A stretch of 57,881 nucleotides of DNA from Candidatus Uhrbacteria bacterium (GCA_016215325.1 JACRJV010000012.1:1-57881), one strand, 5' to 3'. Numbered from the stretch's first letter, positions 721 through 53,179 are shown. The notes: a model not told the origin generated them from the sequence alone. Program-made: numbers and translations.

Positions 721-1644
721 ATGTCTAAACGTCTCGGAATCGGCGTTGCCATAGGTATTTTCGTTCTCGTTTTTGTTCTTTTGAGTGCCAGGTCGTTACG
801 AAATCCGATCGATGACTCTGATACCACTATAAATGTTGTTGCGTCCTTTTACCCCTTGTATTATTTTGCTTCGGCGATTGCCGGGGACGATGCGACCGTA
901 CACAACCTCACCCCCGCAGGAGTAGAGCCCCACGAGTATGAGCTCACGCCCAATGACATTGTTCTGTTGGAAAACGCCAAGCTTCTGCTGCTCAATGGCG
1001 CTGGCCTTGAGCCATGGGCAAACGATGTAAAGTCTACGCTAGAGGGGAAAGGCGTTGTGATTGTCGACACCAGCGGAGATGTTGCAACCGTAACGACAGA
1101 AGCAGATGGTACGCCCCTCCAAGATCCGCATGGGTGGTTGAGCCCAGTCGCCGCACAGGCACAGGTCGACCGCATTGTCGAAGGATTTGCAAAGGCGGAT
1201 CCGCTCCGCGCCTCCGTTTACCAGCAGCGCGCAAGCGATCTTAAAGTGAAGCTCGCCGCACTCGACCGGCAATATACTCAAGGATTGAAGCAGTGCAATA
1301 AACGGAGCTTTATTACCTCCCACAATGCTTTCGGGTATCTTGCTCGGCAGTACAACCTCAATCAAGTGGCGATTGCGGGCTTTTCTCCGGATGAAGAGCC
1401 GACTGCGAAGGCATTGGCGCGCGTGGCCGATCTGGCGCGGTACTACCAAGTGCGCGTGATTTTTTTTGAAACATTAGTAAGCCCCAAACTCTCCCAGACG
1501 ATTGCCGCCTCTGTCGGTGCGCAGACACTGCCGCTCAATCCCATCGAGGGATTGAGCGAAGCAGAACTTGCACAAGGCAAGGATTATGTGAGCGAGATGC
1601 AAAAGAATTTAGAGAGCTTACGGTTTGCCTTGGAGTGCCGATAA
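721..1644 (+). CDS. Metal (Zn/Mn) ABC transporter substrate-binding protein, ZnuA/TroA family
   Basis: ORF 652..1644. VVASFYPLYYFA...HNLTPAGVEPHEYELTPND...LNGAGLEPW...DPHGWLSP is the classic cluster-9 SBP pattern. The probable start is the ATG at 721 (MSKRLGIGVAIGIFVLVFVLL signal anchor). Confidence 0.85.
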   Translation: MSKRLGIGVAIGIFVLVFVLLSARSLRNPIDDSDTTINVVASFYPLYYFASAIAGDDATVHNLTPAGVEPHEYELTPNDIVLLENAKLLLLNGAGLEPWANDVKSTLEGKGVVIVDTSGDVATVTTEADGTPLQDPHGWLSPVAAQAQVDRIVEGFAKADPLRASVYQQRASDLKVKLAALDRQYTQGLKQCNKRSFITSHNAFGYLARQYNLNQVAIAGFSPDEEPTAKALARVADLARYYQVRVIFFETLVSPKLSQTIAASVGAQTLPLNPIEGLSEAELAQGKDYVSEMQKNLESLRFALECR

Positions 1645-1945
1645 AAAAACTTGTACAAAGGGCGCCCTCTCAGATTCTAAAGGTATTAGTCGAGCGACTC
1701 ATTGCAGATGGGATCTTGCGCACACCCGCATCGCGATGGAAGAGCTCGACAAGCGCAATCGGCGCTGAAGTCAGGTCTACTGGCGCCGGGATTCGTGCAC
1801 GCAGCATGAATCCCGGCTTTTTCTCAAACAAAGAACCGCTCCGATTTGGAGAGGTTCTCACTTCATTGATTTCCTGGGGCCAGCAAGCCTGCCCGCAATG
1901 CTGCGCTCGCATAGCGCTGCAGGCGGGTGAAGGATGTTAGAACTT
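1645..1945 (+). ncRNA. Structured non-coding region X (candidate ncRNA or ribozyme-derived element heading the cassette array)
   Basis: 300 nt between convergent gene ends. Perfect hairpins at 1786-1816 (CCGGGATTC/GAATCCCGG), 1832-1858 (AGAACC/GGTTCT) and 1888-1927 (CCTGCCCGC/GCAGGCGGG). The 3' 40 nt nearly match the tRNA-Thr intron at 50687-50723. The overlapping ORF 1635..1940 has no protein-like features. Confidence 0.35.
1822..1943 (+). repeat. Cassette-junction repeat, copy A (long form with 40-nt hairpin insert)
   Basis: tctcaaacaaag-[hairpin]-cattga..tGGGGCCAGCAAG-[cctgcccgc...gcaggcggg]-tGAAGGATGTTAGAAC. It ends 5 nt before the stop of the minus-strand gene 1948..2634. Confidence 0.7.
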
Positions 1946-1947
1946 AT

Positions 1948-2634
1948 TTAAGGCGATACGTACCCCTTGCGTAGTGGGATATCTTTAAGAAAGTCTTCGA
2001 TCTTCAATTCTGTATGAATGTCTAAACTGTCGCGACTGTTGAGTTCTTCCTCCAATGCTTTCCAAAATTGTTCTAATATTCTGAAGGCATCGGCAGGTTT
2101 CAATACTTTAAAATGAAATTTGAATAGGTAGGTTGCTTGGGCTGTTGAACTATTATCAGGGTAGGCATCCTCAGCCTCTTTTTGAGTGGTGTTTCTGAGC
2201 GCCATTGCTTTTTCCTCTGCCGACCCATTAACTCGTTTGATTGCACTATTGAATAATGTTTCGAGAAAATTTTCTATCTCAATTTTTTCGGTAGTGCTTA
2301 CATTTTTTTCTAGAGAAAGAAGATAAATATGAGCGTCGCGTTCAATTTTTTGATGTGCCAGTTCTTTTGGCCGTTGTTCATATAACATTGATCCATCTAC
2401 TTTAACATGCCCTGTGCACGAAGAGCATGTTTGAGTCTGAGAGTTTGGAAAACGATCTTGTGTAATTCGATTGATCCTTTTCAAAGTAGCTTGTATTGGA
2501 AGCTCACATTCACGTTCGATTTCTTCCCAAAGTGAGCGCTCCGCATCTGATTGGGGCGCCAGGTCTTTGGTAGGTATTGGTGCTCTCCAGGTTGGCTCCG
2601 GGGACATGAGTTTGATTTTAACAGCACTACTCAA
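1948..2634 (-). CDS. Hypothetical protein (cassette 1)
   Basis: 228-aa ORF in a low-GC region, bounded by junction repeats A and B. I recognise no family motif. Confidence 0.55.
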   Translation of the reverse strand: MSSAVKIKLMSPEPTWRAPIPTKDLAPQSDAERSLWEEIERECELPIQATLKRINRITQDRFPNSQTQTCSSCTGHVKVDGSMLYEQRPKELAHQKIERDAHIYLLSLEKNVSTTEKIEIENFLETLFNSAIKRVNGSAEEKAMALRNTTQKEAEDAYPDNSSTAQATYLFKFHFKVLKPADAFRILEQFWKALEEELNSRDSLDIHTELKIEDFLKDIPLRKGYVSP

Positions 2635-2690
2635 AAGAGTATCACATTTCGTACTAAAGGTGTAAACGCAAAGTCAGCTACTTTTTTAAT

Positions 2691-2760
2691 GGTATCAAAA
2701 AATAACCAAAAACCATTGAATGTTCTTTGATGGGGGCCCGCAAGTCGAGGATATTAGAAC
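2691..2760 (+). repeat. Cassette-junction repeat, copy B
   Basis: ggtatcaaaaaataaccaaaaaccattgaatgttctttgatGGGGGCCCGCAAGtcgaGGATATTAGAAC. It shares the extended 5' arm with copy D. The BrnA stop codon lies inside 'ttagaac'. Confidence 0.7.
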
Positions 2761-3071
2761 CTGTCTGCGGTTTCTTTCTCCCCGCACTCCGAATGCCGTA
2801 ATGGTTTTTTCTTCCCATCCATAGATTCTGCAAGAATCACCTTAATATACGACTGGTAGGGAACGTCGCGTTGATTGGCTTGTGATTGAATGCGGGCAAG
2901 GAGATCTTCTGGTAGCCGAATGCTAATAGTTCTCGTAGAAGTTTTGAGGTTTGGGAAGACTGCGTGTTGAGCTTTCGACCAATCCAAATAATCAGCAGAA
3001 TCATGGCTTGCCCAGAACTTGCGTTCTTCTTGTTCGGTTTTAAAATGGGGGATTTTTTTATGCTTGTTCAT
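2754..3071 (-). CDS. brnA: BrnA-like antitoxin (CopG/RHH family)
   Basis: HFKTEQEERKFWASHDSADYLDW...TISIRLPEDLLARIQSQANQRDVPYQSYIKVIL is the typical BrnA pattern. It overlaps brnT by 14 nt. Confidence 0.85.
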   Translation of the reverse strand: MNKHKKIPHFKTEQEERKFWASHDSADYLDWSKAQHAVFPNLKTSTRTISIRLPEDLLARIQSQANQRDVPYQSYIKVILAESMDGKKKPLRHSECGEKETADRF

Positions 3072-3351
3072 AGTGATGGCGTTCCTTTCTGCTCATGTCT
3101 CGAGCAGAGATGATGCGGAGTGATTCTCTACGCATCGTAAAGGAAACAAAGAGTAATCGATCAATATTTGTTTTGCCTAACGCATACCATCGGTGTTCTC
3201 TTGTGGAGTGCAGGGCATCTTCTTGGATAAGGAGGGGAGTATTGAAGAACACCTGCTCACACTCCTCATTGGTCACTTTGTGTTTGGTAATATTTTTTTG
3301 ACTATTCCCACGATCCCATTGAAAACCTTCAATCGTTGAAATATCGAGCAT
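3058..3351 (-). CDS. brnT: BrnT-like toxin (DUF497 ribonuclease)
   Basis: FQWDRGNSQKNITKHKVTNEECEQVFFN...RIISARDMSRKERHHY is the DUF497 signature. It lies upstream of brnA in one operon. Confidence 0.9.
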   Translation of the reverse strand: MLDISTIEGFQWDRGNSQKNITKHKVTNEECEQVFFNTPLLIQEDALHSTREHRWYALGKTNIDRLLFVSFTMRRESLRIISARDMSRKERHHYEQA

Positions 3352-3462
3352 AGTCCCATATAAATTTGTATATTACCATCATATACTATTATTCGGATAT
3401 TGTCAAGTGTCCATAGATCGATCGAAAAACAGTTCCATCAAGGAATCCCTGGAGTTTTTTAT

Positions 3463-3485
3463 CAGGGCCAGCAAGATGTTAGAAC
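3463..3485 (+). repeat. Cassette-junction repeat, copy C (minimal form)
   Basis: caGGGCCAGCAAG-ATGTTAGAAC, 12 nt downstream of the fic stop at 3497. Confidence 0.6.
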
Positions 3486-3496
3486 TTTCGTGCCCA

Positions 3497-4708
3497 CTAT
3501 CTCTTAAAGAGATCAAGATACTCATGCAAAATGAATATCCGATTTCTTGAGAATCCAGTAACCTCCTTAAGAATCCCCACTTTCTCCATTTCTCTGATGA
3601 GCGTATTGGTTGCGCTAATGGAAGTTTTGAGGTGTTTTGATGCTCCAGAGACATTCGTGGCAGGCTTAGAGAATAGTTGTATGAGGAGTGCATGAGCAAG
3701 TTTTGCCCTTCGGCCCAGTTCAAAGATTTTTTTTTCGTAACTTGCCCTTAGACTAATGATTTTTTCAAATGTGTCCTCACTCTTTTTTGCTGTTTCAATG
3801 ACAGCAGAAAGAAAAAAAATTAACCATTGGTCAAGGTCATTACGTTCACGAACGAACGTAAGAGCATCATAGTATTTTGCCTTGTTTTTTTCAAAGAAAT
3901 CGGAAAGATAGAGTGTTGGTTTTTTTAGGATTCCCATTTCGATAAGGTGGAGTGAAATTAGCATACGCCCAACACGTCCATTCCCATCGTTAAACGGATG
4001 GATTGTTTCAAACTGATAATGGGATATTGCAATTTTAATCAGGTTGGGCATGTTGAGTCCTTTATTGTGCCAGAAAAATTCCAAATCCTTTAACATGTCA
4101 GGAAGATCATCTGGGTGTGGGGGAATGAATCCTGCGGTCTGGATATTCGTACCCCCAATCCAGTTTTGGGCTATTCGAACCTCGCCGGGTTGTTTGTGTT
4201 CGCCCCGGACTCCAGAAAGTAAAATTCGATGAGCGACGTTTAGTAATCGCATACACACTGGAAGTTTTCTTAGTTGGGCAATTGAGTAATTTGTTGCTTT
4301 AATGTAGTTTTGAACTTCAGTCCAGTCATCTCGTTTTTCGGGGGAGATTTCTTCTTTTGGTAACACCGCTTCGTCCATTCCCGTACGAGTGCCCTCAATG
4401 CGACTCGATTTCACTGCTTCATTACGTACGTGCATTTGGATGAAGAAATCAACATCGGGTACCAAAAGAGAATAGGCATTGAGCTCGCCCACTAGGCGTA
4501 TCGCCTCTTCAAGGAGAACGGGGATTCTTTTATCTTGCCATTCGTAGGGCTGATTCACCAGAGACGGGGAGAAGCTACGGTATTCGTACTCTTTTCCCCA
4601 GAAATGTTTCGTGTAGGTTCCGGCACTAAAGTTATTTTGGAGTTTGGGCATATGATACAAAGTAGGGTTTGATATATCTATATTACTAGATTGAGCCGAA
4701 AGTTGCAA
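3497..4708 (-). CDS. Fic family protein (AMPylase-type Fic domain, C-terminal wHTH)
   Basis: Contains [14 protein letters not shown], which matches the Fic motif HxFx(D/E)GNGRxxR. The N-terminal region is Fic_N-like. The track start is a TTG at 4708; an alternative ATG lies at 4651 (MPKLQNN). Confidence 0.9.
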
Positions 4709-4761
4709 TATGGAAATTTATATTACGACTTGTAATAGAAAGGTTCTACTATCCCGTTCTT

Positions 4762-4830
4762 GGTATCAAAAAACACCCAATAAACATTGGATGTTCTTCG
4801 ATGGGGCATCTTTACGACTCCGCTCGAACC
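4762..4830 (+). repeat. Cassette-junction repeat, copy D (degenerate 3' half)
   Basis: ggtatcaaaaaacacccaataaacattggatgttcttcgatGGGGCatctttacgactccgctcGAAC. The first ~45 nt align with copy B. Confidence 0.55.
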
Positions 4831-5289
4831 TATTTTCAATCAAATCTCCCGACGAAGTCGGGTCGATTGCGGAGGCCTGTACAAGCCATGCGTTTGGATC
4901 AGAGTATTACTAAGGACGACTATGACAGAAAGTTGCAAGAGCTGAAAGATGAACAGTATCGCCTCAACAATGAGCTAGAAGAACACACCAAGGCAGACCA
5001 CAATTATTCTATCCATGTATCTACAGTGTTTGATCTCTGTCGCAGGGTTAAGGAAATTTTTGTGAGTTCTAAAACAACAGAGAAACGTGCGCTTTTGAAC
5101 TACCTACTTCAGAACCCAGTTGTTGAAGGCAAGAAATTTGAGTTTTCGTTAAAATCTCCTTTTGATTTAGTGCTTTCCCTCGCTTCTGAACAAAGCAAAA
5201 GCAGGGCTTTAAACCCTGCTCGTACAACTTGGGGCCAGCAAGTGAAGGATGTTAGAACTTGTCTGGTTGCTTTACAGATGACCCAGTAG
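4801..5289 (+). pseudogene. 3' fragment of a large serine recombinase gene (catalytic and zinc-ribbon domains missing)
   Basis: ITKDDYDRKLQELKDEQYRLNNELEEHTKADHNYSIHVSTVFDLCRRVKEIFVSSKTTEKRALLNYLLQNPVVEGKKFEFSLKSPFD matches the C-terminal coiled-coil tail of large serine recombinases as I recall it. There is no resolvase domain upstream. The ORF tail reads through junction repeat E. Confidence 0.55.
5185..5258 (+). repeat. Cassette-junction repeat, copy E (long form lacking the 40-nt hairpin)
   Basis: ttctgaacaaag-[AGCAGGG cttt aaa CCCTGCT hairpin]-..ttGGGGCCAGCAAG-TGAAGGATGTTAGAAC. It is collinear with copy A, with a compensatory hairpin and a precise absence of 1888-1927. Confidence 0.7.
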
Positions 5290-5493
5290 ATCTTCCACCG
5301 TCCAATCAATATCCTCGAGAATTCCTTTGAGTGTTCCGTTAGGTATATCGCGTGTATGCATGGGGATGACGCTCATCCGACCGTCGATATGTCGCAGGAT
5401 AATATGGCTGCCGCGCTGGCGATCAACGAAAAAGCCTTGTCGCTGCAAGGCCTTGATAAGTTTCTTTGGTGTTACCACGGGTAACTTAGGCAT
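5272..5493 (-). CDS. hicA: HicA-like mRNA interferase toxin
   Basis: MPKLPVVTPKKLIKALQRQGFFVDRQRGSHIILRH...IPMHTRDIPNGTLKGIL is the HicA/YcfA pattern. I placed the start at the internal ATG 5491-5493, which overlaps the hicB end. Confidence 0.8.
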   Translation of the reverse strand: MPKLPVVTPKKLIKALQRQGFFVDRQRGSHIILRHIDGRMSVIPMHTRDIPNGTLKGILEDIDWTVEDLLGHL

Positions 5494-5749
5494 ACTCTCG
5501 TTGTTGAATTTTAGATCGTTGTTTTGCCTTTTCAACAAACACTGTTGTAAACGATTCGAAACTTTGTTCTTCGGGGATGGATTTTCCGTTCTCCATAAGT
5601 GATTCGAGATAGACACCCACCGCCTCTTGGAGGTGTTTTTTTGTTTCAGGGATTGTTTTTCCCCAAGTATGACAACCCTTCAAGGATGGGACGTATCCAT
5701 GGAATCCTTTTGTGTCTGGTTCGATAATGATGCGATAGGTGTGATTCAT
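5486..5749 (-). CDS. hicB: HicB-like antitoxin
   Basis: YRIIIEPDTKGFHGYVPSLKGCHTWGKTIPETKKHLQEAVGVYLESL matches the HicB N-terminal fold signature. It sits immediately upstream of hicA. Confidence 0.8.
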   Translation of the reverse strand: MNHTYRIIIEPDTKGFHGYVPSLKGCHTWGKTIPETKKHLQEAVGVYLESLMENGKSIPEEQSFESFTTVFVEKAKQRSKIQQREYA

Positions 5750-5798
5750 ATGCCTACAGTATAGCAGGCGAGGGTTAAGTATTCAAGCGGAATTTTTC

Positions 5799-5848
5799 GT
5801 GGGCCGGCAAGACTATATTCTGTAGCTTTAGCGTAGGAGGGTTAGAAT
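5799..5848 (+). repeat. Cassette-junction repeat, copy F (distal end of the array)
   Basis: gtGGGCCGGCAAGactatattctgtagctttagcgtaggaggGTTAGAAT. It lies upstream of hicB at the switch from low to high GC. Confidence 0.5.
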
Positions 5849-5862
5849 CATTATTCTCGCCG

Positions 5863-5892
5863 TTGGACATTTGGATAAAGTTGTGGCATAAT
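5863..5892 (+). promoter_or_regulatory. Candidate sigma70-type promoter
   Basis: TTGGAC, 18-nt spacer, TGg-CATAAT (extended -10). It is followed by AAGGAGG and the ATG at 5938. Confidence 0.4.
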
Positions 5893-5937
5893 ATAGAATT
5901 GCAGAACGCAGATCGGTGAACAAAGGAGGAATTTCAA

Positions 5938-6357
5938 ATGGAATGGAGACCGATTTGGGGCTTCGGTGGATACGGTGACGACGATGAGGAATCGTCGAGT
6001 CCGTTTCTACCGGACTCATCCGCCGCCCCTGCACCAGTCGCGTCAAGCGAATTCGATGCGGAGGGGGAGGCTCCGGCTGGCCCTCCGAAGCCTCGGTGGA
6101 ATCGCTACGATCCCATGCCGAACAGCAGACTGTTCAACCTGCCCGCCGTGCGCATGCAGAAGACGACCGACCAAGACAGCAACCTCACATGCAGCCGGGC
6201 CGGATGCACACGGGAGGCCTGGATGAAGTCCGTCGGGCTCAAGGTTGAGCTACGCCACTGCAACAGCGGTAAGCACAACGCCGCTGTCACGCGTCAGTTC
6301 CTCAACCAGGTGGCCGAGGAGGGTAAGTTGAGGGACCTCAAGACTCAGAGGGACTAA
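5938..6357 (+). CDS. Hypothetical protein (high-GC, acidic/Pro-rich N-terminus, Cys/His-containing C-terminus)
   Basis: 139-aa ORF with a strong SD (caaaGGAGGaatttcaaATG). GC is clearly above that of its neighbours. No family recognised. Confidence 0.5.
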   Translation: MEWRPIWGFGGYGDDDEESSSPFLPDSSAAPAPVASSEFDAEGEAPAGPPKPRWNRYDPMPNSRLFNLPAVRMQKTTDQDSNLTCSRAGCTREAWMKSVGLKVELRHCNSGKHNAAVTRQFLNQVAEEGKLRDLKTQRD

Positions 6358-6591
6358 TCCGCGCATCGCGAGATGCGCTCCAATCTTCTCAACGAGAGGA
6401 GGTGAAATCATTCGAACTCGAACGACCAAGGGCAGTCGGCGTCCTAACCCGTGGGTACTCCCACGGCATCCCTACGGCGTCGGGACGCCTTCAGAGAAGC
6501 GGTGCTGGAAAGGACCCAAGAACCGCTGCACGTGCCGGTATCATATGATCGTCTACTCAAGCGACGGTCGTCCATCGAAGGTCTTTCTTTT

Positions 6592-6873
6592 TCACTGACG
6601 CACTCGCTGAGCAACAATGGTGAGCATCATGGCAACATCCGGGGAGCAGTGTTCCTTTTTGAGAGTGATTTGTTTTGTATTAAGTAGCCGTTCGGCTTTT
6701 TGTAACTCATCCGCGAACGCTCCGGTCATGGATACCACGTCGTTAAAGTCGAGGATTACTTCGCCAGGATGATCGGCCAGGATTATATCACGGAGTTTTA
6801 TCGCCATATGCCGGCCCCAGCAGGAAGAGCCGATCAACGCTTGCACATGATATATTTTAGCGGAGGATGTCAT
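6592..6873 (-). CDS. STAS-like (DUF4325-type) small protein
   Basis: MAIKLRDIILADHPGEVILDFNDVVSMTGAFADELQKA resembles the DUF4325/STAS-like pattern (..V.LDF.GV...s.sFadE). The start is uncertain (ATG at 6873 or 6807). It overlaps the upstream ATPase stop. Confidence 0.55.
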   Translation of the reverse strand: MTSSAKIYHVQALIGSSCWGRHMAIKLRDIILADHPGEVILDFNDVVSMTGAFADELQKAERLLNTKQITLKKEHCSPDVAMMLTIVAQRVRQ

Positions 6874-7609
6874 AGAGGTTGATGGATTGTTGCGGCAAGG
6901 GGGATTGAAGGTGCGCAATTGTTCCTTGCCAAAAGAAGGGAAGTGCATGACATTCGATTACGTCATGATGAGCACGCAGTGCCGCGGATGCGGAAATGAG
7001 CCACAGTTCTCCGTTGAAGAGTTGGGTTATTGCCCTTTGAATGCTGGGCAATCCAGTGCCCCGTTCTTCCACGGTTTTTGTGGAGATGCCGTTGAGTGCC
7101 TTGCGGAGCGCCTCACATTCATCGCTGACTGCGATATGTGACTGCCGGTAGGCGTTGGGGATGGAAACCCCCATGTCCGCGACGGTGAGAGAAAATCGTT
7201 CTTGTCCTAGCGCCGAGGTCGCGATGCCCAATGGTGTCTGCGCATGTTCATGCAGATTGTCGATCAGTTCTCCGATGATGTACAAGATGGTTGTGCGAAT
7301 ATCGGGTCGAATTTTTTCTAGAGGGGCAAGTGTTTGTTCCAAGAGATTAGTTGCATTTTCAGACGGATCGATCAGCACCCCCTGCGTGTGTTCGGCAGTG
7401 ATCTGAATAAGATATCCTTCCCGCTGTTTTTGTTGGCTTAGCAGTGTTGTGAGTGCTGGGAGGAAAGAAAGCGGATCGCGGTGAGCATCAATAGTGATCC
7501 AGTGTTCCTCATTGCGCCGTAGCGATTGGAACTGTTCAGTGAGTCGTTGGAGTTCTTTCAGTGTCTCTTCGAGCGTGTTGTGTTCTGGAACGACACAGGT
7601 GATTTCCAT
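6857..7609 (-). CDS. GHKL/HATPase_c ATP-binding protein (RsbW/SpoIIAB-like)
   Basis: N-box IIGELIDNLHEHA, G1 VADMGVSIP and G2 ERGTGLPSI are present. The track ORF 6857..7711 runs into tRNA-His, so the real start is most likely the ATG at 7609 (MEITCVVPEH). Confidence 0.7.
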   Translation of the reverse strand: MEITCVVPEHNTLEETLKELQRLTEQFQSLRRNEEHWITIDAHRDPLSFLPALTTLLSQQKQREGYLIQITAEHTQGVLIDPSENATNLLEQTLAPLEKIRPDIRTTILYIIGELIDNLHEHAQTPLGIATSALGQERFSLTVADMGVSIPNAYRQSHIAVSDECEALRKALNGISTKTVEERGTGLPSIQRAITQLFNGELWLISASAALRAHHDVIECHALPFFWQGTIAHLQSPLPQQSINLYDILR

Positions 7610-7633
7610 AAGAAAGAGATCATGAAATTTTAT

Positions 7634-7709
7634 TGGGGCGGCCAACGGGAATTGAACCCGTATATCCGGTGCCACAGACCGGCGCTCTAACCATTGAGCT
7701 ATGGCCGCC
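7634..7709 (-). tRNA. tRNA-His (GTG)
   Basis: The minus strand reads G-GCGGCCA-TA-GCTC..GAGC-G-CCGGT-CTGTGGC-ACCGG-..CGGGTTCAATTCCCG-TGGCCGC-C-CCA. G-1 pairs with C73 and CCA is encoded. Confidence 0.9.
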
Positions 7710-7781
7710 ACGTCAAACGTGGATTACTGCCACGTTCTACTAGAATATAGAAAATTGCATCTTGAATCAAGAGTAGATACA

Positions 7782-8021
7782 TGTCCCCGGGAGGAAAGGA
7801 ATCGAACCAATAACAGCTGGTCTTTGTCTCCGCGAGGAATCGAACCTCGATCCGGAGCTTAGAAGGCTCCTGTTTTATCCATTAAACTACGGAGACAAGG
7901 ACCAGCACTCATTGGAGGCTTATCCCGCAGCGTGCGGGACCCCATCTGTGGGCAGTGGGAAGGCGGATGCTCTACCCATGGGATCCCGCTGTTGGCGAAC
8001 AGCGGGATGAACTACAGGGAC
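7782..8021 (-). other. tRNA-like shell (decayed Gly-like tRNA?) enclosing tRNA-Arg and two TCCCGC/GCGGGA hairpins
   Basis: The minus-strand ends GTCCCTG (8021) and CGGGGAC-A (7782) can form a 7-bp acceptor-like stem. Also present: a D-arm-like GTTCA..GGGTAGAGC, an anticodon-arm-like TCCGC-CTTCCCA, and a T-loop GGTTCGATTCC at about 7797-7807. No clean cloverleaf can be drawn. Confidence 0.3.
7825..7896 (-). tRNA. tRNA-Arg (TCT), no encoded CCA
   Basis: The minus strand reads GTCTCCG-TA-GTTTAATGGATAAAAC-A-GGAGC-CTTCTAA-GCTCC-GGATC-GAGGTTCGATTCCTC-GCGGAGAC-A. It is flanked by a 9-bp helix extension, GCTGGTCcTT/AAGACCAGC. Confidence 0.85.
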
Positions 8022-8050
8022 AGTAAGATTTCATTGTTCGTTTCACGTTT

Positions 8051-9052
8051 CTATCTTTTATCTTCTCGGCGTTTCCCGTGGAATGCTTGATGTACTTCTT
8101 TTAAATGTTGGTCAGTAACATGGGTATAAATTTGCGTGGTGGTGATTGAGGCATGCCCGAGCAGGGTTTGCACGGCGCGGATATCGGCGCCACCGCGCAA
8201 AAGATCAGTGCCAAAGCTGTGGCGGAGCGTATGCGGCGTGATGCGTTTAGTGATCCCTGCGATGCGCGCATACCGCGATACAATACGCTCGATCGATCGC
8301 GGCGTCAACGGTTGCTCGATTTGAGATTTGAGATTTGAGATTTGAGATTGCTCGGCCGCGGGGTCGTGGCGCACAAAGACAAAGGGTGATGGGTCAGTGC
8401 GCGTATCAAGATAGCATTGGAGCGCTTGTTTTGCCGAGCTTGACAAAAAAACGACACGAATTTTCCCACCCTTGCCCCGGACCGAGAATTCATCGCGTTT
8501 GAGATTGATTTGATCGCGGTTAAGGTTAGCCAATTCCGCCACCCGTAGTCCGGTGGAAAAAAGTGTTTCCAGCATCGCTTTGTCGCGCAGTCGGATCAGA
8601 GTAGCATGTGCTCGGAGTTTCGGATTTCGGATTTCGGATTTCGGATCTTCTCGATTCGAGGGTGCTGCTAGCAGCCGCGCTAATTCACGATCTTCTAGTA
8701 CGCTCACATGTCGTTCTTCCATTTTACCCAGTTCAATTTTTTCTGGTGTCAGTGATTTAATATCTTCGCGCGCAAGATATTTGAGGAATGCGCGCAACGC
8801 GATCATGTGGTAATTGAGCGTATTCACCTTGAGCTCTTCGCCGAATCGGTTCCGCAATTGTTTGAGCCAGACGCGGTATTCATGGACAAGGGCTGCCGAA
8901 ATTTGTTTGGGTTCTTGCAGGTTGTGTTTCGCTGCCCATAACAAAAAACGATGCAGATAATATTCGTACGTTCGGATGGTTTGCAGTCGGCGGTTCTTTT
9001 CGACAGAGCAATATTCCAGGAACCGCTTTACGAGGTTCTCCAGCGTCGTCAT
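8051..9052 (-). CDS. Tyrosine site-specific recombinase, XerC/XerD-integrase family
   Basis: It has an N-terminal SAM-like domain (VKRFLEYCSVEKNRRLQTIRTYEYYL). The catalytic motifs are ..LFSTGLRVAEL.. and HTLRHSFGTDLLRGGADIRAVQTLLGHASITTTQIYTHV. Confidence 0.85.
   Translation of the reverse strand: MTTLENLVKRFLEYCSVEKNRRLQTIRTYEYYLHRFLLWAAKHNLQEPKQISAALVHEYRVWLKQLRNRFGEELKVNTLNYHMIALRAFLKYLAREDIKSLTPEKIELGKMEERHVSVLEDRELARLLAAPSNREDPKSEIRNPKLRAHATLIRLRDKAMLETLFSTGLRVAELANLNRDQINLKRDEFSVRGKGGKIRVVFLSSSAKQALQCYLDTRTDPSPFVFVRHDPAAEQSQISNLKSQIEQPLTPRSIERIVSRYARIAGITKRITPHTLRHSFGTDLLRGGADIRAVQTLLGHASITTTQIYTHVTDQHLKEVHQAFHGKRREDKR
8318..8348. repeat. Heptanucleotide tandem repeat (ttgagat x4.4) inside the recombinase CDS
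   Basis: Read directly at 8321-8348 as four perfect ttgagat units. It encodes SQISNLKSQIS on the minus strand. Confidence 0.9.
8613..8648. repeat. Heptanucleotide tandem repeat (cggattt x about 4-5) inside the recombinase CDS
   Basis: Read directly as cggagtt t cggattt cggattt cggattt cggatct. It encodes PKSEIRNPKSEIRNPK. Confidence 0.9.
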
Positions 9053-35980: not shown

Positions 35981-37447
35981 TTGAAGAAGAGCTTCAACGG
36001 CAACCAGTTCTTGTCTCTCGTCGTCGTCATCCTCGTCGCCATGGTCATCGGCGGCTGCGGAGGAGGCGGGGGCGGAGGCGCCTCGGGAGGAGGCGGGGGC
36101 ACAGCGCTGCCCTCCAAGACGTTCGACGTCACGATCGACGTCACGTCGACGCTCTCCGCGTTCCCGACTTCGACCGCCGTCGCGTACGGGGAATTTCCCG
36201 ACGCGGCGCATCCGGTCAATTACCCGCTCGACCCGTCGCAGTGGACCAGCGTCGAGCGAGTCGACGCTACTCACTTGCGGATCCGCGCCAAGGCCGCCCC
36301 GGGCCGTCACACCTTCAACGTGCTGTTCGGTGCGGCCCCCGGTACGTGGCTGGATCGGATCAATGGGGTCGTCGCGTCGATCGGAAACGTCGCCGTCGAC
36401 TTCGTGGACAACAATTTTGGCAATGGTAGCCGAAGTCTTGTGTTCACGATCAACGACTCCGGGGGGCCGGTCGGCACTGTCATCACTCCGCCCTCGGGCG
36501 GGGGTGTCACCTCCGTGGCGGGCGCTCTCGCGCTTACCATGGGGTTTCAGTGGATCGGTTCCCCGCGGGACAGCAGCACGCCGGTTTTGTACGGTGAGAT
36601 CCCTACCGCCCAGGATCCGCGCTGGCCCGGCTCGGATTCCTCCAGCCGCTATACGGTGCAGCGGCTGGACAATGGCCAGCGGTTCAAGTTCGGCACGACC
36701 GCTGTCCCCGGTCGGCACGAAACCAACTTCCTCGTGGGGCCGTTGTCGGGCAATCTCTTTGGAGATTTGCTCGTCCGGCTCACGCAGGGAATCGCCACCG
36801 TGGGTGGGGTGGTTCCGCAGCTCGTTTCCAACGAGCTCGGCGGTTTCAACTTTGCCTGGTGGTTCACGACCACCGGCGAAGTCGCTCCCGCCCCTGGGCT
36901 ACTCACCGTCTTCGGAGACTCGGTGGATGCGACGGGGCTGATCAGGGTCAAGCTCTACGCCAGCACAATCGCGGGAGCTATCGGGTATCAGTTCCTGATC
37001 GCCACCGGTCAGGACACCGTGGGTCAGACCATCAATACCACCAGCCCGGTGGCGGAGGTTCTGTTGCCGGCATCGCAGCCGGTGAGAGTTAAAGTGGTGG
37101 CGAGCACCACGAACCCTTCGACGGTTGCGCCAGTCCGGGTGGTCGCGTTCCCTGGCATTCCGGTCACCATCGTCGCCCGCTGGGACGCCGACCCCGGTGT
37201 GGTCACCATGCTGGGTGGACTGCCCATCAACGGCGTGTTCAACGCTGCCGGGATTCCCGTGGCGGGCTCGGGTCTCACCCGGACGTTCGTCACTCAAGTC
37301 CCGGTCGGTCAGTTCAGTTGCCAGTTGACGTCGTCGGCCAGCAGGTCGCTGATCCAGGCGACCGTCAACGGGACGACCATCCAGGCCGGCACCACGGGCG
37401 CGTGCTCCTTCTCCGTCCTTCACTCGACGGCCATCCGCGCCCCGTGA
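35981..37447 (+). CDS. Lipoprotein with poly-Gly linker and an internally duplicated ~135-aa beta-rich domain
   Basis: aaaGGAGaatgccTTG start. The lipobox is LVAMVIGGC, followed by GGGGGGGASGGGGG. YGEFPDAAHP..APGRHTFNVLFG (about 36185) is repeated as YGEIPTAQDP..VPGRHETNFLVG (about 36590). GC is about 63%. Confidence 0.6.
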   Translation: MKKSFNGNQFLSLVVVILVAMVIGGCGGGGGGGASGGGGGTALPSKTFDVTIDVTSTLSAFPTSTAVAYGEFPDAAHPVNYPLDPSQWTSVERVDATHLRIRAKAAPGRHTFNVLFGAAPGTWLDRINGVVASIGNVAVDFVDNNFGNGSRSLVFTINDSGGPVGTVITPPSGGGVTSVAGALALTMGFQWIGSPRDSSTPVLYGEIPTAQDPRWPGSDSSSRYTVQRLDNGQRFKFGTTAVPGRHETNFLVGPLSGNLFGDLLVRLTQGIATVGGVVPQLVSNELGGFNFAWWFTTTGEVAPAPGLLTVFGDSVDATGLIRVKLYASTIAGAIGYQFLIATGQDTVGQTINTTSPVAEVLLPASQPVRVKVVASTTNPSTVAPVRVVAFPGIPVTIVARWDADPGVVTMLGGLPINGVFNAAGIPVAGSGLTRTFVTQVPVGQFSCQLTSSASRSLIQATVNGTTIQAGTTGACSFSVLHSTAIRAP

Positions 37448-39294: not shown

Positions 39295-41112
39295 ATGTCC
39301 AATCTTCAAGATCTCGCAAAACTAGTTCGATACTATAGTTTGCTCTGTTCCACATTGGCCGGATCTGGGCATCCGACGTCTTCGTTGTCTGCCGCAGATC
39401 TGCTCACCACCATCTTGTTTGGTGGATTTTTCCGATACAATCCCGCGGACCCTGCGTACGCCAACAATGACCGCCTTATTTTTTCTAAGGGCCATGCTTC
39501 ACCCCTCTTTTATGCGCTTTGGACCGTTGCGGGGGTCATCACCGAAGATGAGCTCAAGACTTATCGCACATTTGGAAGTACTCTCGAGGGGCATCCGACT
39601 CCACGATTCCGATGGGCAGAAGCAGCCACAGGGTCACTGGGCCAGGGCCTCTCGATCGGCGCTGGTATGGCGCTGAACGCAACATATATTGATCATCTCC
39701 CATACCGCACCTGGGTGTTGCTGGGCGATAGCGAGATGGCCGAAGGATCCGTATGGGAAGCAATAGAGTTTGCCGCGCACCGGAAGCTCAATAACTTGGT
39801 TGGTATTATTGACGTGAACCGTTTGGGGCAACGCGGCCCCACGATGGTAGAACATCATTGCGAATTCTATCGTGCCCGATGCGAGTCCTTTGGGTGGAAG
39901 GCTATTGTGATCGATGGACATGACCTCCCGGCGATTGAGCGCGCGTGCACCGAAGCGGTCCAGAGTTCGGACCAACCCGTGATGATCATTGCTCGGACGC
40001 TCAAAGGTAAAGGCGTAAGCTTTATCGAAGACAAAGAAGGATGGCACGGGAAAGCCTTGACCAAAGAAGATTTTGACCGGGCGGTAAAAGAATTTGGAAC
40101 ATTGGATACATCGTTGCGCGGCAATCTTGCGAAGCCAGAGCAACTATCGGCGACTCCATCGGCGATCGCGCCATCGGATCTTGCCCTACCAACCAAGGAT
40201 ATTGCAACTCGGAAGGCCTATGGTGACGCGTTGGCGCGGTTGCTGCCAATGTACCCCCAGATTGTTGCGCTGGACGCTGAGGTGAGCAACTCCACCTATG
40301 CCGAAGACTTTGGCAAACGCCACCCCGACAATTTTTTTGAAATGTATATTGCAGAGCAGAACATGGTTGGGGTTGCATTGGGGTTGAGCCTGCGTGGCAA
40401 GATCCCATTTGTTTCGAGCTTTGCGGCATTCTTGAGCCGGGCGTTTGACCAAATCCGTATGAGCCAATATTCGGGCGCCAACATCAAGTTCGTTGGTTCC
40501 CATGCCGGAGTTTCTATCGGGGAAGACGGGCCGAGTCAGATGGCGTTGGAGGACCTTGCAATGTTCCGAAGCATTCGCGAAAGTGTTGTGTTCTACCCCA
40601 GCGATGGCATGAGCGCGCACCGGTTGATCGCGTTGGCAGCCAAGCACCGCGGGATTGTCTATGTGCGCATGAGTCGCCCGGTGACACCGCTCTTGTATAA
40701 TGAGTCAGAACAATTTGCGATTGGGGGGAGTAAAACGCTGCGTTCCAGTCCGAGCGATGTTGTGACTGTTATCGCGGCCGGGGTAACACTCGTCGAGGCA
40801 CTCAAGGCCTACGACTTGCTGCAGAAAGAGGGGGTCGCAATCCGCGTCATTGATTTATATAGCATTAAGCCGGTTGATGCCGCGGCACTCCAAAAGGCCG
40901 CAGTCGAAACAACGGCATTGATTACGGTTGAAGACCATTATCCCGACGGCGGCATTGCCGATGTAGTGCGAGCAGCCATCAGCACCCCCGTGTACTCACT
41001 CGCCGTCAAGAAATTGCCCATGAGCGGCAAACCCGATGAACTACTGCATTACGAAGAGATTGATGCAGAGGCGATCGTGAAAAAAGTGAAAGCAATTGTA
41101 GGAAACAGTTAA
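39295..41112 (+). CDS. tkt: Transketolase
   Basis: GSGHPTSSLSAADL, LLGDSEMAEGSVWEA, EQNMVGVA and GEDGPSQMALEDLAMFR. Confidence 0.93.
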   Translation: MSNLQDLAKLVRYYSLLCSTLAGSGHPTSSLSAADLLTTILFGGFFRYNPADPAYANNDRLIFSKGHASPLFYALWTVAGVITEDELKTYRTFGSTLEGHPTPRFRWAEAATGSLGQGLSIGAGMALNATYIDHLPYRTWVLLGDSEMAEGSVWEAIEFAAHRKLNNLVGIIDVNRLGQRGPTMVEHHCEFYRARCESFGWKAIVIDGHDLPAIERACTEAVQSSDQPVMIIARTLKGKGVSFIEDKEGWHGKALTKEDFDRAVKEFGTLDTSLRGNLAKPEQLSATPSAIAPSDLALPTKDIATRKAYGDALARLLPMYPQIVALDAEVSNSTYAEDFGKRHPDNFFEMYIAEQNMVGVALGLSLRGKIPFVSSFAAFLSRAFDQIRMSQYSGANIKFVGSHAGVSIGEDGPSQMALEDLAMFRSIRESVVFYPSDGMSAHRLIALAAKHRGIVYVRMSRPVTPLLYNESEQFAIGGSKTLRSSPSDVVTVIAAGVTLVEALKAYDLLQKEGVAIRVIDLYSIKPVDAAALQKAAVETTALITVEDHYPDGGIADVVRAAISTPVYSLAVKKLPMSGKPDELLHYEEIDAEAIVKKVKAIVGNS

Positions 41113-52069: not shown

Positions 52070-53179
52070 GTGTCACTCCGAGGCCACGAAGAGTTCATGC
52101 GTTTGGCAATGGACCAAGCCCATCGGGGAGAGGGCACCACCAGCCCCTACCCCTCGGTGGGATGCGTTATCGTCAAGGGGGGGCGCGTCGTCGGCAGAGG
52201 CTTTACGCAACCAAAGGGTCGTGAGCACGCAGAAGTCCATGCCCTCAAACGGCTCGGCAACCGAGCAAAAGGGGCAACTCTTTATTCGACTCTTGAGCCG
52301 TGCCATCATAATGACTACACGGATTGCGAACCGTGCTCCCAATGGATTGTGGGTAGTGGGATTCGCACGGTGGTGTGGGGCGCTCGCGACCCCAACCCCA
52401 AGAATGCCGGTGGTTGCACGCGATGGTTATCCGCGCGTCGGGTTCGAGTGATCGGCCGCGTTCTCCAAAAAGAGTGTGAGCAGCTTCATGAGGTTTTTCT
52501 CGTGAGCCTTGCGCGCAAACGACCCTTTGTACTGGTGAGCACCGCGGTGTCGCTGGATGGCAAAATTACTTGGCAGAAGGGGAAGTCTTCTAAAGGGGAG
52601 TTTTCTTCTGGCGCCGCATTCCGGCGCGTCCATGATCTGCGCAGCCGCGTAGATGCGATCGGCGTAGGGATTACAACCATCCAGATTGATAATCCGCGGT
52701 TGACCGCTCGGGTTGGGCACCGATCAACGCCTGCGCGAGTCATTATTGATTCCCATTGCGAGACTCCGGTATCCGCAAAGGTATTCGAAGCAAAGCAGGG
52801 GGCAGTGATCGTGGTGACCACGGCCTATGCGCCACTGATTCGCCGCGAAGAATTGGTTGCAGCGGGCGCGCAAGTGATTGTGGCTGCTGAAACCTCCACA
52901 GGGCAAGTGAATCTTAAAGACGCACTCAAGCGCCTGTATCAGCAGGGGATTACCAGTTTGATGATCGAGGGGGGCGGAGAATTGATTGCGAGCGCCTTGA
53001 AGGCAAGGCTTGTTGATAAAGTGTATTTGTGGTATGCTCCATTGCTCATCGGCGGGCGCGATACCCCGACGCTGGTGGAAGGAGAGCCGTTGGAGCGCTT
53101 GAGCGATGCAACGCGCTTAAAAGATGTGACGAGCGAAAAAATCGGCAATGATATATTAATCGGTGGATACATCCGTTAA
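52070..53179 (+). CDS. ribD: Bifunctional riboflavin biosynthesis protein RibD (deaminase/reductase)
   Basis: HAEVHAL...TLEPCHH...C (CMP/dCMP deaminase zinc motif), then a RibD_C reductase region (VSLDGKIT, MIEGGGEL). Confidence 0.9.
   Translation: MSLRGHEEFMRLAMDQAHRGEGTTSPYPSVGCVIVKGGRVVGRGFTQPKGREHAEVHALKRLGNRAKGATLYSTLEPCHHNDYTDCEPCSQWIVGSGIRTVVWGARDPNPKNAGGCTRWLSARRVRVIGRVLQKECEQLHEVFLVSLARKRPFVLVSTAVSLDGKITWQKGKSSKGEFSSGAAFRRVHDLRSRVDAIGVGITTIQIDNPRLTARVGHRSTPARVIIDSHCETPVSAKVFEAKQGAVIVVTTAYAPLIRREELVAAGAQVIVAAETSTGQVNLKDALKRLYQQGITSLMIEGGGELIASALKARLVDKVYLWYAPLLIGGRDTPTLVEGEPLERLSDATRLKDVTSEKIGNDILIGGYIR

Follow-up and report, generated by a model that had tools for sequence, protein, structure and literature searches.

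The stretch of DNA analysed here, 57,881 nucleotides (57.9 kb) from a Candidatus Uhrbacteria bacterium (GCA_016215325.1, JACRJV010000012.1:1-57881) and called the window below, carries near its beginning a row of small gene modules separated by copies of one repeat, and the question it raises is how such an array was put together. An initial annotation had described six copies in one orientation (A to F) and left two explanations standing, the tandem accretion of small elements at one attachment (att) site or an integron-like cassette platform. Our analysis supports accretion, accompanied by a serine recombinase remnant: we consider it likely that 1822-7708 is a genomic island that arose through successive, site-specific insertions into the 3' (CCA) end of a tRNA-His gene, carried out by a large serine recombinase (LSR) whose open reading frame (ORF) crosses the insertion site. 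What the annotation had missed is that the repeat mimics the 3' end of tRNA-His and that the true target lies 1.8 kb past F. The evidence, documented by comparison of sequences, consists of the core of the sites, a triad of site types, insertion polymorphism, the association of LSR genes with tRNA genes, arrays of direct repeats at other loci and a spacing rule for att sites.

All six copies were found on the plus strand at the positions first described. Each junction follows one plan, with a variable left arm, a core of 6-7 nt, (T)TGGGGC, and a right arm (P') of about 23 nt. In reverse complement, the core corresponds to the CCA of tRNA-His together with its discriminator and the final 2 nucleotides of the acceptor stem, and the P' arm imitates the next 18 nt of the same gene. 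This tRNA-His gene (7634-7708, minus strand) is intact, scoring 73 bits, and is the live target; its 3' end (7634-7657) constitutes a seventh, functional member of the family, which reads on the plus strand ttttat-TGGGGC-GGCCAACGGGAATTGAAC, that is, a left arm X, the core and an arm B' with 18 nt to GAAC. A conserved P', similar in sequence to the tRNA itself, is found in A, B, C and E. Allowing at most one mismatch, GGGGCCAGCAAG occurs in the window only at 1876, 2733, 3464 and 5231, and GATGTTAGAAC at 1933, 2750, 3475 and 5248, with an extra, unpaired match at 39843. The two halves are collinear at exactly four sites, namely A, B, C and E, and the paired motif is unique in the window; none of the window shuffles used as controls reached the total motif counts. 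An exact 19-mer is common to A and E, and the extended 5' arm that had been reported for B and D is 46 nt long with 87% identity. Copy D retains just TGGGGC and ...TCGAAC, and its tie to the family is the arm in common with B, while F is a weak, degenerate copy (TGGGCCGGCAAG ... GGTTAGAAT, with a 28-nt insert between the two). Rfam returned no RNA families in 1600-6000, either at the gathering threshold or at permissive E-values.

The recombinase that we propose as the agent is represented inside the array by a fragment. The plus-strand ORF at 4888-5289 has its homologues in short ORFs or at the C-terminus of longer ones. A metagenome scan for relatives of this stump provided 80 loci (the L numbers used below), and a profile of 495 positions was built from 36 full-length relatives; the window matches it at positions 387-491 with 166 bits, which identifies the stump (4882-5229), at the level of sequence, as the C-terminus of an LSR comprising the second coiled-coil helix and the C-terminal tail. 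Its last 45 nt or so are the P arm of E, including a minus-strand terminator at 5199-5221, and, as previously stated, the frame reads through copy E, extending to 5289, so that E encodes the tail of the ORF, W-G-Q-Q-V-K-D-V-R-T. The link that had been drawn between stump and array was borne out; it had been overlooked that the left arms of A and E are themselves the 3' end of the recombinase ORF. One full relative, L077, has Resolvase, Recombinase and Zn_ribbon_recom domains and abuts tRNA-His. The end of the ORF overlaps the 3' end of an opposite-strand tRNA gene in 30 loci (21 with full-length or contig-end-cut genes and 9 with stumps), most of these tRNAs being Asn and the rest Trp, Gln or His. 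Unusual C-terminal peptides like ...LRGQDSNLRP arise because tRNA sequence is read backwards at the end of the ORF.

Comparison with relatives places the exchange of DNA at the core. In L111, from Hainich groundwater, a stump 92% identical to that of the window is joined straight to tRNA-His, and the junction reads ...CTTGTACAACT-TGGGGC-GGCTAACGGGGATCGAAC, that is, the P arm of the stump, the core and the tRNA, a hybrid P-core-B' site. The left arm of L111 is the E-type arm of L032 and L031 (50/50 nt), and in E of the window, in L031 and in L032 the same left arm and core are followed by CAGCAAGTGRAGGATGTTAGAAC, giving P-core-P'. Read as sequence comparisons, these junctions demonstrate that sites exchange arms at the 6-7 nt core, with attP-, attB- and hybrid-type sites forming a triad. 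A crossover between AGAAC and YT, where similarity between copies ends, had been considered earlier and was dropped once L111 placed the crossover in the TGGGGC core. Measured at the core, stump and tRNA are 0 nt apart in L111; in L032 they are separated by about 0.95 kb, and in the window by 2.4 kb (5236-7633, occupied by modules 5 and 6, which L111 does not have). L032 presents the same outer landmarks as the window, with 82% identity in the A-type arm, 92% in the stump and E site (4906 to 5258) and 86% in tRNA-His, and the two have no cargo in common between those landmarks. At an internal junction of L032, another gene, hicA, has its stop codon within GATGTTAGAAC.

Similar arrays occur at other loci. 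Of 82 loci, 16 have extra copies of the tail/att region, always on the same strand; none has one on the opposite strand. In L091 a series of at least 6 copies extends over 9.3 kb up to tRNA-Asn, and the minus-strand cargo comprises Peptidase_S51, NUDIX and a zeta-toxin-like kinase; in L109 a 104-nt site is repeated 4-5 times, again with minus-strand cargo, and the modules of both measure 0.45-1.2 kb. L028 contains a similar array too. Positions 1-5406 of L109 and 6346-8298 of L110 are 100% identical through the LSR stump and diverge at the core, beyond which one continues into tRNA-Asn and the other into more cassettes, a second natural insertion polymorphism; presence, absence and content of modules thus vary between L109 and L110 as they do among L111, L032 and the window. 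Between L085 and L101, identity is 99.8% on the right of the core and only 95% in the LSR tail, which fits the expectation that the DNA left of the core belongs wholly to the element.

The spacing within the sites was also considered. The distance from the core to the end of (T)xGAAC is 22-24 nt in the P' arms of B, D and E and 18 nt in tRNA-His; in the tRNA-Asn family of L091 the corresponding values are 17 and 12 nt, the same shift of +5 nt. For the Listeria integrase, attP has the zinc-ribbon motif 5 bp further from the centre than attB does (Rutherford et al. 2013, PMC3783163), and the same work asks whether the 5-bp offset holds in other LSR systems. Taking the motif compared here as the zinc-ribbon motif, which is an assumption, the attP/attB spacing rule would hold in this family as well.

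Considering the junctions individually, the left arms are of three kinds: the LSR tail (A and E), a hairpin arm beginning GGTATCAAAAAA (B and D), and an arm ending in ...ttttat or ...tttcg (C, F and the tRNA of the window), whose likeness to a tRNA-type terminator is weak in C and F. The GGTATCAAAAAA arm also flanks the live tRNA-His of L032 and one internal L032 junction. The left arm of A (1822-1874) is a relic of the last 50 nt or so of an LSR gene, collinear with the arm of E and 82% identical to L032 1368-1444; on the minus strand it forms a terminator-like hairpin followed by a U-rich tail. Junction A proper (1875-1943) has its core TGGGGC at 1875-1880 and a P'-type arm, CAGCAAG...TGAAGGATGTTAGAAC, split by the 40-nt GC-rich hairpin (1888-1927) that E, as had been noticed, does not carry. 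In junction B (2691-2760) the GGTATCAAAAAA arm is followed by the core TGGGGG (2731-2736) and by P' to 2760; by its likeness to the flank of tRNA-His in L032, this left arm can be read as a decayed terminator arm of tRNA-His type. We had at one point regarded the arms of B and D as decayed LSR C-termini ('..KPLNVL..'), an idea that was dropped when L032 proved to have this arm beside its live tRNA-His, in the place of a terminator. The left arm of junction C (3444-3485) ends ...ttttat like the live tRNA-His flank, its core is CAGGGC (3463-3468), and its right arm has attB-type spacing, with 17 nt to GAAC. Junction D (4762-4830) has the core TGGGGC (4802-4807) and a divergent P' ending in TCGAAC at 22 nt; its left arm gives a strong terminator-type hairpin on the minus strand (z = -4.7). 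Junction E (5230-5258), with the core TGGGGC at 5230-5235 and the 23-nt P' CAGCAAGTGAAGGATGTTAGAAC, is a complete attP-like site, P-core-P'. Junction F (5790-5849) has a left arm ..aatttttcg, the core TGGGCC (5800-5805) and a right arm reaching GGTTAGAAT past its insert.

On the minus strand, the left arms of A, D and E and two L032 arms, one of them the tRNA flank, form hairpins with U-rich tracts after them, and judging by this they look like terminators placed just downstream of a tRNA end. The hairpins of A and E, which had been described as one structure with compensatory changes, turned out to be two different terminator-like hairpins at the same position. The right boundary of the LSR-derived arms is fixed and the left one varies, leaving about 50 nt in A and about 350 nt in E. 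Insertions into P' fall at one internal position, between CAGCAAG and GATGTTAGAAC: it is the place of the hairpin in A, of a different GC hairpin in L032 (about 6830-6857) and of the 28-nt, non-hairpin insert in F (5813-5840).

We propose the following scheme. An incoming circle carrying left arm, core and P' would recombine with the core at the tRNA; its right end would restore the CCA end and supply a terminator for the tRNA. The previous junction would thereby be displaced outward, ending up, on the minus strand, just downstream of the new cargo, whose transcription its hairpin may then terminate. In any junction, the left arm would be the right end of an older module and P' the left end of a younger one. 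Displacement of this kind may explain why the cargo is all on the strand of the tRNA, why stop codons lie at or inside P', and why the right edges of the arms are fixed and the left ones variable. As in tRNA-gene islands that grow by tandem accretion, the end of the tRNA gene appears to be restored by the element, and six same-orientation att copies, plus the tRNA, stand in the window without an intact recombinase. That modules devoid of a recombinase were moved in trans by an LSR encoded elsewhere, each not being the relic of a full element, we infer, as we do the order in which the modules arrived.

The modules between the junctions have the identities first given to them, and the repeats do lie at their boundaries. 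Module 1 (1948-2634, minus strand) encodes a hypothetical protein with no family match. Module 2 (2754-3351, minus strand) consists of brnA (2754-3071) and brnT (3058-3351); the brnA stop codon, 2754-2756, sits within TTAGAAC of B, as reported. Unrelated to brnA, the hicA gene of L032 (stop codon 6863-6865) also ends at the TAA of P', GTTCTAAC on the minus strand in both cases, an arrangement that recalls the stop codons in the R'' boxes of integron attC sites. Module 3 (3497-4651, minus strand) is a Fic protein of SoFic type, matching the PADLOC SoFic model with 364 bits; module 4 is the LSR stump on the plus strand; and module 5 (5272-5749, minus strand) contains hicA (5272-5493) and hicB (5486-5749). 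Module 6 (5850-7633), next to the tRNA, holds an ORF at 5938-6357 (plus strand, 60-62% GC, no family match) and two overlapping minus-strand genes, one DUF4325/STAS-like (6592-6948) and one HATPase_c (6857-7612), a pair that begins about 20 nt from the 3' end of tRNA-His and has no PADLOC match for either gene. Both brnT and hicB are preceded by promoter-like sites, and the hypothetical gene by a weaker one. The low GC that had been ascribed to the array was measured as 0.38-0.46, compared with 0.51-0.62 in the flanks. Named-organism homologues of the LSR and of Fic are mostly Parcubacteria or Patescibacteria, with one Fic homologue labelled Actinomycetota. Elsewhere the window, with an overall GC of about 50%, encodes RibD and ZnuA (52070-53179 and 652-1644), and ARAGORN calls a 91-nt tRNA-Gly(TCC) at 36793-36883 that is below the Rfam tRNA gathering score, being either a gene with an intron or insert or a false call.

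Several observations weigh against the tRNA-His island as we describe it. Copies D and F resemble the others only weakly, and the likeness of P' to the tRNA appears only modest. The 57.9 kb window holds no intact LSR of this family, just the C-terminal stump, and since no such gene is present the array is probably static now. The inserts of 40 nt in A and 28 nt in F should inactivate those sites. Canonical LSRs recombine attP with attB only, and for insertion beside a P-type arm (attR-like, as in L111) either a directionality factor or a looser specificity would be required; permissiveness is ascribed to Ccr enzymes, and the LSR family here may share it. L111 itself could alternatively be a deletion product, by attP x attB recombination in a window-like array, and not the ancestral state. 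Among the relatives compared there was no circular or excised form and no identical module in a second context. Logan contigs of the source sample are merely pieces of the window (3444-4831 and 4836-8347) and thus yield no evidence of strain variants there. Homologues of Fic elsewhere, the close ones with 72% nucleotide identity, stand in other contexts without these sites; such contexts say nothing about cassette mobility. In IMG/VR we found a single truncated relative and no phage or circular form. A search of about 6.8 kb upstream of full-length LSRs revealed no left end of an autonomous element.

Under the same model, the one rival to be taken seriously is that each module is the deletion remnant of a full-size autonomous LSR element and was never mobile alone; the array would be a graveyard moulded by a bias towards deletion, in which toxin-antitoxin genes persist by resisting loss. 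The variable left boundaries of the LSR-derived arms, with their fixed right ones, would follow from it, module 4 has plainly been gutted, frameshifted LSR pseudogenes are present in L061 and L070, and the cargo is mostly toxin-antitoxin. However, the left arms of B, C, D and F are not LSR-coding but of terminator or tRNA-flank type, and the presence of the GGTATCAAAAAA arm both at the live tRNA-His of L032 and at an internal L032 junction points to modules that natively end so. Arrays of 0.45-1.2 kb modules recur, moreover, in unrelated loci, and purely sequential accretion followed by decay does not predict that the window and L032 should keep the same outer landmarks with no common inner cargo. 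We regard decay from full-size elements as possible, though doubtful as the general origin of the modules.

A different alternative goes further than serial insertion and takes the locus as a cassette platform run by a serine recombinase, an analogue of the integron, in which minimal modules would be captured and shuffled at the CCA end of a tRNA by a recombinase acting in trans, and the repeatedly retained stump would be functional. In each module, a single gene or toxin-antitoxin pair, apparently with a promoter of its own, would stand between a P' arm and a terminator-type arm; the stump would serve as resident P arm and homology anchor in cis, or would gate insertion at an otherwise inert attR-type site by coiled-coil interference. 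This we hold to be unlikely.

Stumps of about 100 codons occur in 28 loci and start at 387-395 of the 495 profile positions (4882-4906 in the window; the others run from L028 to L111, for example L032 8004, L101 8001 and L110 8001). The joint is mostly exactly ...GN-ATTACTAAGGAYGAYTATGAC (I-T-K-D-D-Y-D), with GGNGN preceding it, and from the consensus sequence the breakpoint would fall at the tip of the coiled coil. Upstream of the stumps, different loci have unrelated DNA, which in some cases cuts into another ORF, and three related tRNA-His stumps have three different left breakpoints, with ratios of nonsynonymous to synonymous substitution (dN/dS) among them of 0.02-0.13. Most stumps have no start codon nearby and none has a Shine-Dalgarno-like site, which weakens the case for a translated protein. 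A hot spot, a cis-acting function, or an inherited boundary refreshed by homologous recombination with incoming LSR genes are candidate explanations for the recurrence of the stump. A second, rarer class of LSR tail begins near profile positions 459-462 (..YLLQNP..), in L091 (3083-3184) and in L109 (231-338, the same as L110 6576-6683), with two independent examples only.

The island could also be the work of a tyrosine integrase, for instance the Xer-like gene at 8051-9052, the LSR stump then being incidental cargo. Most known islands at tRNA genes do use tyrosine integrases (PMC4383910), and this gene lies 340 nt beyond tRNA-His, with a tRNA-Arg between. Nevertheless it falls outside the island, 5' of the tRNA genes, and is scored as XerC/D (230 bits); in the 30 loci, the ORF that overlaps the tRNA 3' end is that of the LSR, and a common core of just 6-7 nt suits serine recombinases, unlike the long blocks of identity usual in tyrosine-integrase islands at tRNA genes. 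Such an origin is very improbable. The Xer-like gene (minus strand) has the peculiarity of two in-frame heptanucleotide arrays, GATTTGA x4 (8318-8345) and TTTCGGA x4 (8618-8645), which add the repetitive peptides SQISNLKSQISNLKSQI and PKSEIRNPKSEIRNPK to an otherwise XerC/D-like protein.

An integron, or an array of clusters of attC sites lacking integron-integrases (CALIN), in which an IntI-type tyrosine integrase would act on non-canonical attC sites, was the other reading proposed at first. An attC site is a hairpin-forming imperfect palindrome, 57-141 nt in length, whose R''/R' boxes read RYYYAAC / GTTRRRY. The array has in common with integrons and CALINs small, same-orientation cassettes of one gene or toxin-antitoxin pair, with copies after the 3' ends of the cargo, and stop codons within the repeat (brnA here and hicA in L032); the inverted 7-mers that had been likened to R''/R' boxes are present at the ends of A and E, but they are imperfect and confined to those two copies. 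Against this, no IntI was found, and the only tyrosine recombinase nearby, beyond the tRNA genes, is Xer-like (XerD-scoring at 230 bits) and reaches 115 bits against the TIGR02249 cut-off of 265. The copies have no common attC-like fold, B, C and F folding like shuffles (z -0.4 to -1.3) with no hairpin common to all. Where an integron has a tyrosine enzyme and a folded attC hairpin, here a serine recombinase ORF crosses a fixed, double-stranded core that is common to the sites and to the tRNA end from which core and arm derive, and the cargo, with its promoter-like sites, does not look promoterless. We find it hardly credible that this is an integron. A dispersed, terminator-associated repeat of the repetitive extragenic palindromic (REP) type gathering in intergenic spacers, which the initial annotation had named as what might undo its proposal and which the terminator-like hairpins of several arms recall, can be practically discarded, given that the paired motif is unique in the window (one half recurs once, with 1 mismatch, at 39843), that its orientation is strictly one, that L111 shows exact presence and absence at the core, and that the pattern GGCCMGCAAG-N(0-30)-ATRTTAGAAC, scanned in 185,579 species genomes, gave 26 single matches in unrelated taxa, which look like chance by our own rough estimate of the number expected (the Peribacteria match, when inspected, was one).

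Known systems of comparable behaviour exist. In the composite islands of the staphylococcal cassette chromosome (SCC), CcrAB or CcrC, which are LSRs, direct insertion at the 3' end of one conserved gene, rlmH; the elements lie in tandem, and psi-SCC elements without ccr are presumed to move in trans. The Uhrbacteria array is, in our reading, likewise LSR-driven and tandem, with direct repeats and some elements without a recombinase, whereas SCC elements use rlmH, measure several kb to tens of kb, and present neither tRNA mimicry nor a recombinase ORF crossing the site. The ssrA islands of Dehalococcoides are tandem islands with DsiB, a CcrB-like serine recombinase, and a 20-bp ssrA repeat; several have no integration module and were proposed to be cis-mobilizable (McMurdie et al. 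2011, PMC3146451). They share with the present case serine-recombinase elements in tandem at the 3' end of a tRNA-like gene, short direct repeats and low GC. Their target, however, is the T-loop of the tmRNA, while here it is the CCA and acceptor tip of tRNA-His, with a 6-7 nt core and a mimic arm; they are multi-gene islands with a 6-gene integration module beside attL, while the modules here measure 0.4-1.8 kb, each with a single gene or toxin-antitoxin pair, and the att site is crossed by the ORF of the LSR. Successive integrations at tRNA genes that push older elements inward and leave remnants have been described for cis-mobilizable elements (CIMEs), together with integrative and conjugative (ICEs) or mobilizable elements (IMEs), and for Prochlorococcus tycheposons (PMC5704250); of 937 tycheposon-type elements, 910 use tyrosine recombinases. 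Partial tRNAs, degenerate elements and integrase-less remnants are found in both cases, but the CIMEs and tycheposons have overwhelmingly tyrosine recombinases, together with long identity segments and far larger modules.

The array thus works like the SCC and ssrA islands but is not a member of either, its target being a tRNA gene and not rlmH or ssrA; the likeness is one of mode. The statement that no described system has this site holds for the site, and a full-text literature search for LSR, tRNA and Candidate Phyla Radiation gave no match; the kind is known, that of tandem serine-recombinase islands at t(m)RNA or rlmH 3' ends, of which the array would be a miniature example devoid of a recombinase. 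New with respect to the known kinds are the CCA-tip target, the ORF crossing its own site, the terminator-like arms and the integron-sized modules.

For small groundwater genomes, the island provides a route by which genes for toxin-antitoxin pairs and for defence, such as BrnTA, HicAB and SoFic, can be gathered at one tRNA locus. Its natural set of LSR sites, comprising the core, attP-type, attB-type and hybrid forms, offers a test case for the attP/attB spacing rule and for the mining of LSR sites, and the recurrent truncation of the recombinase at one point is a testable, unexplained regularity of the family. If it is true that the modules without a recombinase are mobile singly, the locus would represent a cassette system founded on a serine recombinase and not on an integron integrase.

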